Made by a program: the position numbers. From the IMG/VR virus record IMGVR_UViG_2939521961_000006: 64,000 nucleotides of DNA, one strand, 5' to 3'. This DNA is from a virus. Lineage: Duplodnaviria > Heunggongvirae > Uroviricota > Caudoviricetes. Position 1 is the stretch's first letter. Each line of letters starts with the position of its first letter. Below are positions 39,001 through 42,000 of this stretch, piece after piece.

Positions 39001-42000
39001 CGACAACGTACATCAGTGATTTACTGGTTGTGGTCATGAAAAAATCCACGGCAGGGATCAGTATCAGCTGACGGTTTATTAACCCGGACGGGCACCTCAG
39101 GAGGTGCCTTTTTTATTGACTGAAAACAAAGAGGTAATCATGCGGCATTTATACGCAACGATATTATTGTTTACTACCCTGCTGGCAGGAATTGCCTTTC
39201 CTGCACAGGCTGAAAGCGGACACGGTGCATTTTCCGTGGGATATGCTCAGGTTCACCCGGGCGGCGTACCGGCATTGTCCGGTACCGGTGCGCGTGCAGG
39301 TGATTTAAAAGGGATTAATGTGAAATACCGTTATGAGTTCACGGATCACCTGGGCGGCATTGTCGCGCTGAGTTATGCATCGGTGAAGAAAAGTGACACG
39401 ATGAAGACGGGTGAAAATACCTTCCATTATGAAAGCCTGCGCGGTCGTTATGTCAGTCTGATGGCCGGCCCTGTCTGGCAGCTCAGTGAGCGGGTCAGTC
39501 TCTATGGCATGGCCGGGATGGCGTACACCCGCTGGTCTGACAGTGTTCAGGATTACCGGCGTGATGAAGTGAAACCGGGGTATGTGAAGGAGACCACCAC
39601 CGCCAGTGATGGCCATACTGCGCGTCATCTGTCGCCGGCCTGGAATGCCGGGATTCAGTTCAGTCCCGTAGAGACGGTGGTTATTGACCTTGCTTATGAA
39701 GGTTCCGCCAGTGGCGACTGGCGCACTGACGGCTTCATCGTGGGTATCGGCTATAAATTCTGATTAGCCAGGTAACACAGTGTTATGACAGCCCGCCGGT
39801 TCAGGCGGGCTTTTTTTGTGGGGTGAATATGGCAGTAAAGATTTCAGGTGTACTGAAAGACGGCACAGGAAAACCGGTAGAGAACTGTACCATTCAACTG
39901 AAAGCCAGACGGACCAGCAGCACGGTGGTGGTGAACACGGTGGCCTCTGAAAATCCGGATGAAGCCGGGCGTTACAGCATGGACGTTGAGTACGGTCAGT
40001 ACAGCGTCATTCTGTTGGTGGAAGGATTCCCGCCGTCACATGCCGGGACCATCACCGTGTATGAAGATTCTCAACCGGGGACGCTGAATGATTTTCTCGG
40101 TGCCATGTCGGAGGATGACGTCCGGCCGGAGGCACTGCGCCGTTTTGAACTGATGGTGGAAGAGGTGGCGCGTCACGCTGAGGAGGCGAAGAAGAATGCC
40201 GGAGAGGCGGAGACGTCAGCGAGGAATGCCGGCATATCAGCCAGTCAGGCAGAAGAGAGCGCTGCAAATGCTGACACTTCAGCAGGGGAGGCATCGGAGT
40301 CAGCCCGGCAGGCGGCAGAAAGTGCAGCCTCAGCAAAGCAGTCAGAGGATGCGTCCTCGTCCTCGGCTTCTGCGGCCGCTCAAAAAGCCAGTGAGTCATC
40401 ACAAAGTGCAGCAGAAGCTGAATTGTCAAGAAAGACGGCAGAAAGTGCAGCCGGTAATGCAGCCAGGGATGCAACGACCGCAACAGAAAAAGCCCGGGAG
40501 TCAGCAGAAAGCGCACAGTCAGCGGAACAAAGCAGGATAGCGGCGGAAGAAGCCGTAAACCGAATCCCCACAGTGGTGGGGCCACCCGGGCCAAAGGGAG
40601 AACCGGGGCCCGCGGGTCCTCAGGGGCCGAAGGGAGATAAAGGAGAGCGTGGCGACACCGGTCCTGTCGGGGCAACCGGTGAACGGGGACCGGCAGGTGA
40701 TGCTGGTCCGGCAGGCCCGCAGGGGCCGAAAGGCGACAGGGGAGAGCGGGGAGAGACCGGTCTGACGGGAAATGCAGGTCCACAGGGTCCAAAGGGAGAT
40801 ACCGGTGCGGCAGGCCCGGCAGGCCCGGCAGGCCCACAGGGACCGAAAGGAGAAACAGGTGCGGCTGGCCCGGTGGGGGCAACCGGACCTCAGGGACCGA
40901 AGGGCGACCCGGGGGAGACACAAATCCGTTTTCGTCTGGGGCCGGCGAGCATTATTGAGACAAACAGCAATGGCTGGTTCCCGGGTACAGATGGTGCGCT
41001 CATCACCGGACTGACCTTTCTTGACCCCAAAGATGCCACACAGGTTCAGGGGCTGTTTCAGCATTTGCAGGTCAGGTTTGGTGACGGGCCGTGGCAGGAT
41101 GTTAAGGGGCTGGATGAAGTGGGCAGTGATACAGGCAGAACAGGAGAATGACATGAACATACTAAAAAAACTTATGCAGCGTCTGTGCGGTTGCGGAAAG
41201 CATGATGGCCGTGAACACGGGCAGTCGCTTACAGTACAACTGCGACTGGGACCGGCAGACATTCTGGAGTCCGATGAGAGTGGCATTATCCCGGAGCAGG
41301 ACAGGGTAATCACGCAGGTGGTGATACTGGATGCGGATAAAAAGCAGATACAGTGTGTGGTAAGACCGCTGCAAATTCTGCGTGCTGACGGGACGTGGGA
41401 AAATATTGGCGGGATGAAGTAACCCGACGGATTCACAAAAACCGGAGTCCGGCTCCGGTTTTTGTTGTCATGTATGGGGGCTGTTTGTTATGACTCCCTG
41501 TGTTTGGAATGAATATTTAAATAGGGAGTTTTGTCATGCCGTTAACATCAGCTATTGCATCCAATTCATTTTCCACCGGAATGCAGGTTCTTCGTGCTCA
41601 AATGGCCGCCAGTGGCGGTGGAGAAATTACAGTAGGCGGGCAGACGGTCCGTATCACATATAGTGAAACGGATGGTCGCTTTCTGGCGAGTGGGGGCAAT
41701 AACAGTTTGCTTTCTGGATTATTACTTACAGGGCTTAATGGTGGTCCTGAAGCGCTCAGGGATATAATGTTAAGAATGGTTTCAGGTTCAGGTAACACAC
41801 AATCACATGGTGATATTGAGGGGAAAATATCACAATGTAAGTTTTCTGTTAATACGGAGAGCCTTCAGTGTCCATCCGAGGCGGTTCGATGCCCAATTAT
41901 ACTGGATAAACCAGAAGAAGGTGTGTTTGTTAAAAATTCAGAAGGTTCTTTGGTTTGTACCTTATTTGATTCGGTTTCTTTTTCTCATTTGGTTCGCGAC

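Follow-up and report, generated by a model that had tools for sequence, protein, structure and literature searches.

A two-gene collagen-like fibre block of lambdoid prophages in Escherichia coli, with the small PfC gene as a candidate fibre accessory

The closest described relatives of the fibre analysed here are the EPclA proteins, such as ECs2717 of E. coli O157:H7 Sakai, which have the same order of PfN, PCoil, a single collagen domain and PfC (Ghosh et al., 2012, PMC3368898). Biochemistry on this close homologue gave a trimeric dumbbell shape and a collagen CD signature; the PCoil region was a trimeric coiled coil by experiment, and PfC was shown both to drive trimerisation and to re-nucleate the collagen helix (Ghosh et al., 2012, PMC3368898). 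A downstream stand-alone PfC gene is not mentioned in that paper. Such a gene was described in the Stx2 phage Sp5, where ORF68 encodes a non-essential PfC polypeptide of 89 aa that was proposed as a possible "reservoir" for fibre variation (Mondal et al., 2016); deletion of ORF68 was tolerated, and neither plaque-forming nor lysogenising ability was reported to suffer. For the tail-attachment end of the fibre, the relevant precedent is Ur-λ, in which the tail-tip collar is built from twelve copies of the λ Stf N-terminal domain (PDB 9E7M). The small gene is already known, being annotated in RefSeq, assigned to a PHROGs family and noted in 2016, and the fibre architecture was characterised in 2012. 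What is new here is the strong purifying selection on the small gene, the invariant junction between the two genes, the co-occurrence of the small gene with the fibre knob, and the φ24B peptides.

The window, a stretch of 64,000 nt from a tailed virus (IMG/VR record IMGVR_UViG_2939521961_000006), matches a lambdoid prophage of E. coli O26:H11 at 100% identity, and its fibre protein is 100% identical to WP_000279008.1 of E. coli O26:H11 str. 11368. The gene order is J, lom and then the fibre gene, which is divided as follows.

39823–41151, + strand: predicted EPclA-type collagen-like side tail fibre gene (ORF list; PF08400, PF01391 and PF06820)
39829–40227, + strand: PfN domain (PF08400, aa 3–135), tail-attachment, homologous to the λ Stf N-terminus (Pfam)
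40228–40572, + strand: PCoil, an Ala/Ser/Glu-rich heptad region, predicted trimeric coiled coil (composition, periodicity)
40579–40920, + strand: collagen triple-helix region of 38 uninterrupted Gly-X-Y triplets, aa 253–366 (regular expression, PF01391)
40924–41115, + strand: fibre PfC knob (PF06820, aa 368–431), followed by an 11-aa tail (Pfam)

The fibre ORF is 442 aa long from GTG 39823, with the RefSeq start at ATG 39829. Its PF08400 match scores 231.5 bits (E=3.4e-69; cut-off 26.6), and 93 of these N-terminal residues (aa 3–95) match PDB 9e7m_Ta, "Tail fiber protein", at E=2e-51. The 115 residues of PCoil include 37 Ala, 24 Ser and 16 Glu, and Ala and hydrophobic residues recur with a 3.5-residue period to a degree that none of 2000 shuffles reached. 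The top PDB sequence matches of the collagen region are collagen chains, and the knob covers the whole PF06820 model (positions 1–64 of 64; E=3.7e-36; 123.8 bits against a cut-off of 25). The C-terminal IRFRLGP…DVKGLD is the exact fragment that was cloned as PfC (Ghosh et al., 2012, PMC3368898). With PfN, a heptad PCoil, a single uninterrupted collagen domain and a C-terminal PfC all present, the fibre is, judged by its sequence, an EPclA-type side tail fibre of published architecture. The original prediction of a collagen-like side tail fibre agrees with the position after J and lom, the Stf-like N-terminus and the EPclA domain order; its figure of about 36 Gly-X-Y triplets was right as to the collagen run, and we correct the count to 38.

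The fibre gene is followed by a small ORF on the same strand, bordered by a short junction and a hairpin, with a decayed partial copy further downstream.

41142–41155, + strand: coupling junction AGGAG-AATGAC-ATG (sequence)
41153–41422, + strand: stand-alone 89-aa PfC paralogue (PF06820, phrog_576, RefSeq WP_001023435.1)
41435–41465, + strand: G+C-rich hairpin with a T tract, intrinsic-terminator-like, closing the block (folding)
42196–42370, + strand: decayed repeat of the final ~32 codons of the small ORF (direct repeats D3, D5 and D7)

The length of 89 aa is counted from ATG 41153 to the ORF end at 41422; the longer version of 133 aa, starting at TTG, that a mechanical ORF list gives merely reflects 46 open codons upstream in the frame of the small ORF. 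An N-terminal extension of 27 aa with an invariant LCGCGK motif precedes PF06820 at aa 28–89 (E=3.1e-35; 120.8 bits, cut-off 25; the entire model, 1–64 of 64), which is the sole Pfam match of the small ORF, the Caudo_TAP domain being absent. The whole ORF aligns with phrog_576 (positions 1–89 of 89, E=4e-59), and no NCBIfam model matches it. By BLASTP, fibre aa 368–430 and small-ORF aa 28–88 share 23 of 63 residues (37%; 62% positives; E=9e-12). Pairwise alignment of the two C-terminal regions thus gives a similarity far beyond chance, and with both regions matching the full PF06820 model, the predicted downstream paralogue of the fibre C-terminus is confirmed. A codon-by-codon alignment of the corresponding DNA has 54% identity, with 46% at third positions, indicating that the duplication is old rather than recent; the longest word common to the two is 11 nt. 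We consider the identity of the two-gene block close to certain.

At the junction, the ribosome-binding site AGGAG is followed by the fibre stop TGA (41149–41151), a single base and the start ATG (41153–41155), such that the ATG lies 2 nt after the fibre stop and 6 nt downstream of AGGAG. The TGA-c-ATG stop-to-start spacing is the same in all 79 readable related loci, the 23-nt junction string AGGAGAATGAcATG is the same in 78 of the 79, and within the block nucleotide diversity is at its minimum (0.002) over the final 30 nt of the fibre gene. We found no promoter-like site belonging to the small gene between 39000 and 41500 on the + strand. The hairpin has a fold energy of -23.5 kcal/mol (z=-4.8) and is kept 3' of the small ORF in related loci and in phage 933W; a consensus terminator scan had missed it, an A/T extension absorbing the T tract, and folding confirmed it. 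The decayed copy, ~870 bp downstream, matches the end of the small ORF at 87–92% identity (D3, D5 and D7); it has an in-frame TGA and a 7-nt deletion, keeps the hairpin intact (a second exact hairpin copy lies at 42307–42329) and extends ~35 nt beyond the hairpin.

Structural comparison added little to these assignments. An AlphaFold2 model of the small protein from a 20-sequence alignment has six β-strands and a disordered N-terminus at low confidence (pLDDT 59.7), and a Foldseek search of the PDB with this model returned nothing at E<=0.001. The φ24B authors likewise obtained no confident AlphaFold model of the PfC domain. Among solved PDB structures there are no relatives of the small ORF, and the matches of the fibre are limited to collagens and the Stf N-terminal domain.

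The small ORF is the counterpart of ORF68 in Sp5, L0122 in 933W and "gp59" in φ24B, the corresponding fibre genes being ORF67, L0121 and gp61. It shares 92% protein identity with L0122, and the collagen end, PfC, junction, ORF and hairpin have 95% DNA identity with 933W, with homology stopping just past the hairpin. For the best 80 of 285 IMG/VR matches, which are related and often recombining copies, dN/dS of the small ORF is 0.126 overall at dS of ~0.12, its PfC part having 0.078 and its 27-codon N-terminal extension 0.30; the fibre's own PfC has 0.265, such that the small ORF is under the stronger purifying selection. Of 80 loci, 78 retain the full 89-aa ORF, including loci with a disrupted fibre gene; such disruption is common among the related prophages, many of which are defective. 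LCGCGK does not vary within E. coli and is also present in the copy of Citrobacter rodentium, and the ORF itself is conserved in E. albertii and C. rodentium. Of 5426 complete E. coli genomes, 698 have the small ORF (6393 places) and 697 the fibre knob (6159 places); these are the same ~700 genomes, with ~10 copies of each. Stand-alone-type PfC comprises 27 protein variants at 91–100% identity. Two word-index protein searches found homologues in Escherichia and C. rodentium only, and an exhaustive HMM search of 1.84 billion representative proteins gave 80 matches, nearly all of them E. coli fragments and chimeras. The multi-repeat HMM matches P0231, P0250 and P0252 are likely false positives; domain scans of P0231 and P0252 showed CarboxypepD_reg and SprB repeats.

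Among the peptides listed for the φ24B virion proteome, two are unique to the small ORF, with 3 spectra each, and those of the fibre have 47–181 spectra. Band 23, in the low-molecular-weight range, is the one gel band in which the small-protein group exceeds the fibre, and no peptide spanning the fibre/small-ORF junction is among those listed. The low counts could reflect contamination instead of a functional link with virions. Together with the selection, these peptides suggest that the small gene is very probably an expressed, selected gene rather than a silent spare part.

We propose reading the region as the distal part of a two-gene block of lambdoid prophages in attaching-and-effacing E. 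coli, carried by long-tailed prophages as well as short-tailed Stx phages, in which the small gene serves as a fibre accessory; we give this reading a probability of roughly 0.55. The Stf-like N-terminal domain would anchor the fibre to the tail, the Ala-heptad coiled coil and the 38-triplet collagen helix would form its shaft, and the PfC knob would trimerise the chains and nucleate the collagen helix from the C-terminal end. The small PfC-fold protein, probably a trimer, would be made in step with the fibre, would act on or beside the C-terminal knob during assembly or adsorption, and would mostly not be retained in the particle. This mechanism of a dispensable accessory is tentative, and we rate it below even odds. 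Given that the deletion of ORF68 in Sp5 had no reported defect, any role in assembly must be non-essential under laboratory conditions. Side fibres mostly serve to speed up adsorption, and an effect may therefore have escaped the plaque and lysogeny end points used for Sp5.

The published alternative (Mondal et al., 2016), to which the original prediction of a duplicated or alternative distal tip module also belongs, is that the small ORF is kept mainly as DNA, from which recombination could graft an alternative PfC tip onto the fibre and so change its specificity. Rare natural hybrids are consistent with such grafting: in P0064, collagen triplets run in frame into a stand-alone-type PfC, joined at the 11-nt shared word GGGACCGGCAG, and in P0184 a stand-alone N-terminus is joined to a fibre-type PfC. 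However, these amount to one four-member cluster at a contig edge and one singleton among thousands of copies, and the 54% nucleotide identity, with no shared word longer than 11 nt, makes the knob and the small ORF poor partners for homologous exchange. With so little diversity in the stand-alone type, only a single alternative tip would be on offer. Moreover, a reservoir needs no conserved ribosome-binding site, no ATG and no constrained 27-codon extension, whereas the small ORF has all three, and peptides of the small ORF have been detected in φ24B. An invertible cassette or a recent duplication was also considered and rejected, the knob and the small ORF lying on the same strand at 54% nucleotide identity. 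Between 39000 and 42600, the inverted repeats comprise the two copies of the hairpin and short matches of a size expected by chance, none of them cassette-like. The neighbours of the block are lom and nleG genes, whereas a Gin/Cin-type tip cassette has oppositely oriented tips between inverted repeats and an invertase. Thus, the ancient duplicate of the prediction stands, but its use as an alternative tip is doubtful: the two copies share a strand and lack usable DNA homology, cassette-like inverted repeats are missing between 39000 and 42600, and the small ORF, with a ribosome-binding site and an ATG of its own, is under stronger selection than the fibre knob and is translated. We regard the reservoir as unlikely. 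To the same degree unlikely, in our estimate, is a late role apart from fibre assembly, in which free PfC trimers released at lysis could mask receptors on debris or on sister cells, or the gene would be a "moron" like lom that benefits the lysogen. The dispensability of the Sp5 orthologue for plaques and lysogeny, the sub-stoichiometric amount of the protein in virions and the position of the gene at the boundary with cargo genes, just 5' of the terminator-like hairpin, are all consistent with such a role. However, the gene has no promoter-like site of its own in the interval searched (39000–41500, + strand), is translationally coupled to the fibre gene and travels with the distal half of the fibre even in short-tailed phages, where it is located amid the morphogenesis genes. 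A signal peptide is not evident either, with no uninterrupted hydrophobic stretch seen by eye in MNILKKLMQRLCGCG. Reading LCGC as a lipoprotein motif was rejected, there being no hydrophobic signal segment before it (by eye).

Two further alternatives are the least likely. Programmed +1 recoding at GAA-UGA-C would fuse the fibre and the small ORF into a minor isoform with two tandem PfC knobs, which would explain both the near-invariant junction, synonymous sites included, and the low level of peptides in virions. UGA-C is a weak stop context, an AGGAG lies just upstream of the recoding site, as in prfB, and the +1 frame is open at the fibre stop. However, tRNA-Glu on GAA cannot re-pair on AAU, such that the P-site codon before UGA-C is unable to shift in the manner of prfB, and ordinary coupled initiation fully accounts for the ATG 6 nt past AGGAG. 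The φ24B authors included such fusions in their mass-spectrometry database, but no junction peptide is among those listed, and the excess in gel band 23 fits a free 10-kDa product. Tandem PfC-like domains do occur in distant relatives, but Mondal et al. (2016) found no frameshift-prone sequence. We consider recoding very improbable, and it is slightly more improbable still that the small ORF is a functionless remnant left by an old duplication or by replacement of the tip. Many of the prophages are defective, often with broken fibre genes, and 870 bp downstream there is a partial copy that has indeed decayed, but that genuine relic (42196–42370) shows its decay in a stop codon and a deletion. 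The small ORF, by contrast, has a dN/dS of 0.13 at dS of ~0.12, survives undamaged in 78 of 80 loci, including some with a broken fibre gene, is kept in E. albertii and C. rodentium, and is translated.

Some 700 of 5426 complete E. coli genomes keep ~10 copies of a small, strongly constrained, expressed gene beside every collagen-like fibre. If the small protein does pair in trans with the PfC knob, it would represent a new type of accessory, one that arose from the fibre it serves, and could aid the engineering of collagen-like fibres or the understanding of Stx phage host range. The conserved ORF-hairpin block also marks the border at which prophages exchange effector cargo.

The C-terminal trimerisation and registration domains of collagens and fibres, among them the T4 fibritin foldon, collagen NC1 and the Scl2 V domain, are small terminal globular trimers from which a triple helix is nucleated and set in register. 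PfC resembles these modules in its mode of action (Ghosh et al., 2012, PMC3368898); there is no sequence relation and no detectable fold relation between them and PfC, for which there is no solved structure and the model is poor. EPclA is similar in size to the fibre here, occupies the same prophage position and differs only allelically, in the lengths of the coil and the collagen run. The fibres of Sp5, 933W and φ24B are of the longer EPclB type on a podovirus tail, and their block lies amid the morphogenesis genes, whereas here an EPclA fibre on a λ-like tail is encoded at the end of the late operon, beside effector cargo. The stf-tfa locus of phage λ has the same order (J, lom, fibre, small downstream gene), and the two fibres share a homologous N-terminal anchor, the Stf collar domain. 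By contrast, the C-terminal receptor-binding region of λ Stf, which is served by Tfa, is unrelated to the collagen shaft and PfC tip found here. No Caudo_TAP-type tfa gene lies beside the fibre, the next genes being nleG effectors (Pfam). The small gene, immediately 3' of the fibre gene in a co-expressed position, occupies the place of λ tfa; rather than a Caudo_TAP/Tfa domain, it carries a copy of the fibre's own knob.

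The gene at 39823-41151 (+) was originally predicted, correctly, to encode a collagen-like side tail fibre. Its product has the following parts:

Residues 3-135: N-terminal anchor, PfN (PF08400; Pfam)
Between PfN and the collagen run: Ala/Ser/Glu-rich segment
Residues 253-366, at 40579-40920 (+): collagen run of 38 Gly-X-Y triplets
Residues 368-431: C-terminal knob, PfC (PF06820; Pfam), then an 11-residue tail

This is exactly the domain order of EPclA (Ghosh et al., 2012, PMC3368898), and residues 1-93 match the N-terminal domain of the Ur-λ side fibre, whose structure has been solved (PDB 9E7M; E=2e-51); the fibre assignment therefore holds, and was already known. 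The collagen run is single and uninterrupted, as predicted, but the count of about 36 triplets was slightly low. EPclA, a close homologue, is a trimeric dumbbell in which PCoil and PfC are each a trimerisation module; its collagen part has a melting temperature of 42 °C, with PfC enabling immediate refolding of the helix (PMC3368898). In Ur-λ, 12 copies of the side-fibre N-terminal domain make up a tail-tip collar bearing four trimeric side fibres (PMC12617516). In the Ala-rich segment of our fibre, Ala and hydrophobic residues recur strongly every 3.5 residues; none of 2000 shuffles reached this periodicity, and the segment reads xxAxxxA when written in rows of seven.

The small ORF (89 aa; ATG at 41153, stop at 41422) was predicted to repeat the C-terminal pattern of the fibre, and formal alignment bears this out: by BLASTP, fibre residues 368-430 align with ORF residues 28-88 (37% identity, 62% positives, E=9e-12), and both proteins match the whole PF06820 (Phage_fiber_C) model at ~120 bits each, against a curated cut-off of 25. 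Since a codon-by-codon alignment of the two PfC regions gives only 54% nucleotide identity (46% at third positions), and the longest exact word common to the two genes is 11 nt, the duplication is old rather than recent. The ORF belongs to phrog_576 (full-length match, E=4e-59), and by tblastn it is present, at 91-100% protein identity, in 296 phage records, almost exclusively from Stx-converting phages, among them 933W (L0122) and VT2-Sakai/Sp5. Ghosh et al. (PMC3368898) make no mention of a downstream small ORF. Systematic deletion of Sp5 late genes showed that the fibre, ORF67, is essential, and that phage lacking the small-ORF orthologue still forms plaques and lysogenises (Mondal et al., 2016, PMC5155283). 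The same authors suggested that the orthologue is a reservoir of alternative tips, so the alternative-tip interpretation in the original prediction repeats a published idea. Thus the fibre (EPclA), the small paralogue (ORF68 of Sp5, L0122, gp59 of φ24B) and the reservoir idea have all been published and/or routinely annotated; what we add is that the small gene is selected, coupled and translated, and that it always accompanies the knob of the fibre.

Coupling and selection were assessed in the best 80 of 285 IMG/VR loci carrying the small ORF. A single base separates the fibre TGA from the small-ORF ATG in all 79 readable loci, and the 23-nt junction (…AGGAGAATGAcATG), with an AGGAG ribosome-binding site 6 nt 5' of the ATG, is identical in 78 of them, the remaining locus having one upstream base changed. 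Within the whole block, nucleotide diversity reaches its minimum over the final 30 nt of the fibre gene (0.002, and 0.004 if only third positions are counted), which fits constraint on an initiation region. The small ORF keeps its full 89 aa in 78 of the 80 loci, including loci where the fibre gene is broken, and its dN/dS is 0.126 (Nei-Gojobori, 57 distinct alleles): 0.078 in PfC and 0.30 over the first 27 codons, compared with 0.265 for the fibre's own PfC. It is followed by a conserved, strong hairpin with a T tract (41435-41465; -23.5 kcal/mol, z=-4.8). These selection data rule out a simple relic; the decayed copy 870 bp downstream (below) shows, by comparison, a true one. In about one-fifth of related loci (L011, L021, L029, L034, L039, L040, L056, L074-L076 and L080) the fibre ORF is truncated or frameshifted and the 89-aa ORF intact; these may be defective prophages in true decay, or the collagen repeats may have been misassembled. 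A CGCGK motif at 41186-41200 (ORF residues 12-16), just upstream of PfC, is the same in each of 27 protein variants; the longer LCGCGK never varies either, and a shorter Citrobacter rodentium homologue retains it. Three copies in a trimer would bring together six cysteines, and we speculate that these might bind a metal, or link up in a disulfide knot like the one that ends collagen III.

The proteome of purified φ24B virions (2026 preprint, 10.64898/2026.04.10.717836) includes two peptides, ADGTWENIGGMK and VITQVVILDADKK, that are unique to the small ORF and identical to the window's ORF. Its authors assign them to "gp59_start" and to hypothetical gp61-gp59 fusions, under the protein-group label "Fusion_6159_FS1 - Spike or just gp59?"; the small protein is not discussed in the main text. 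The count for this group exceeds that of the fibre only in gel band 23 of 24, which is in the low-molecular-weight part of the gel because proteins of 80, 65, 45 and 35 kDa peak in bands 5, 6, 10-11 and 14. We read this as translation of the small ORF as a free ~10 kDa protein. Each of its peptides has 3 spectra, compared with 47-181 for fibre peptides; the small protein is not stoichiometric in the particles, where it can be no more than a very minor component or carry-over. A fusion of fibre and small ORF by +1 recoding would have in its favour the AGGAG adjoining the fibre stop and the stop itself, UGA-C being a weak context. Against it, re-pairing of GAA in the +1 frame is impossible, no peptide spanning the junction is among the φ24B peptides listed, and the extra spectra fall at low molecular weight; we regard recoding as very improbable.

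In E. coli O26:H11 str. 11368, and in many other O26 or related EHEC strains, the chromosome carries the sequence at 39823-41480 with 100% identity. RefSeq names the two products "prophage tail fiber N-terminal domain-containing protein" (WP_000279008.1) and "phage tail fiber C-terminal domain-containing protein" (WP_001023435.1). In the O26:H11 record, the fibre follows genes for the tape measure, minor tail proteins, gpJ and Ail/Lom, and the small ORF is followed by several NleG-family effectors, EspW, a chaperone and potB/potA; the pair is therefore at the very end of a λ-like prophage late operon, bordering type III effector cargo. Pfam recovers Lom, four NleG proteins and the fibre domains in the window, where the cargo is:

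41536-42111 (+): NleG-family gene 1
42396-42983 (+): NleG-family gene 2
43051-43686 (+): NleG-family gene 3
43814-44872 (-): EspW
44947-45597 (-): NleG-family gene 4

The G+C content of this cargo (41536-45597) falls to 0.36-0.40, compared with 0.55-0.60 for the tail genes. Terminator-like hairpins lie just before and just after lom (39090-39109 and 39790-39811), and the fibre gene starts 12-18 nt past the second, which makes lom look like an insert, bracketed on its own, that separates J from the fibre gene. At 42196-42370 (compare 41325-41498) is a decayed partial copy of the last ~32 codons of the small ORF, with an in-frame TGA and a 7-nt deletion; the hairpin and ~35 nt beyond it are intact. 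The first nleG gene sits directly before this copy, between direct repeats of the ORF-hairpin block, suggesting that the block anchors recombination of effector cargo. A second hairpin, mostly at a distance of 868 bp from the first, also occurs in 7 of the best 80 loci.

Among 5426 complete E. coli genomes, the small ORF occurs in 698 (6393 places; median 10 copies) and the PfC-coding segment of the fibre in 697 (6159 places), so that the two are effectively inseparable. The short-tailed 933W and the long-tailed prophage in the window share the collagen end, PfC, junction, ORF and hairpin at 95% DNA identity, with homology ending a few bases past the hairpin, whereas the block lies among morphogenesis genes in 933W and at the operon end in the window; the small gene is co-transferred with the distal half of the fibre between unrelated tail types. 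For the view that the small ORF is a spare PfC tip for grafting onto the fibre by recombination, two rare natural hybrids offer some support. P0064 (L082:4-291, at a contig edge) runs in frame from collagen triplets into a stand-alone-type PfC, with the join precisely at the 11-mer GGGACCGGCAG that the paralogues share (window 40686 and 41248), and P0184 joins a stand-alone N-terminus to a fibre-type PfC C-terminus. Nonetheless, a reservoir would account neither for the detected protein nor for selection acting on the N-terminal extension and start region, and we consider it unlikely. Thus, of the predicted "duplicated or alternative distal tip module", the duplicate stands, as an old one. The small gene is under selection, coupled and translated, and always goes with the fibre knob, which speaks against its being only a spare part. 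We likewise give a low probability to the small protein acting at lysis or on the host.

We tentatively propose, with a probability of roughly 0.35, that the small protein is an accessory to the fibre knob. The fibre is built to fold from its C-terminal knob, and the small gene is a late gene under constraint, with an initiation site of its own and production in step with the fibre; its product probably retains the PfC fold and trimerises, and may act in assembly or adsorption. Structure prediction gave an all-β AlphaFold2 model, as a low-confidence result (pLDDT 59.7). When 1.84 billion representative proteins were searched exhaustively with the profile, only 80 matched, nearly all E. coli fragments or chimeras. 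The only credible distant relatives of PfC are P0236, a 565-aa singleton from a read-archive assembly with four tandem PfC-like units and then a collagen region (PF06820, 57.6 bits; BLASTP 50% over 34 aa, E=1e-7), and a relative, L084:3884-4924, on a 43-kb contig (IMG/VR UViG_3300045988_080533), with Gly-X-Y runs after each of two units. In both, the PfC-like unit is an internal bead beside collagen rather than a tip, which hints, but only hints, at a structural or registration role for PfC rather than receptor binding. The small gene has no Tfa domain (Pfam), but it holds the same slot as tfa of λ.
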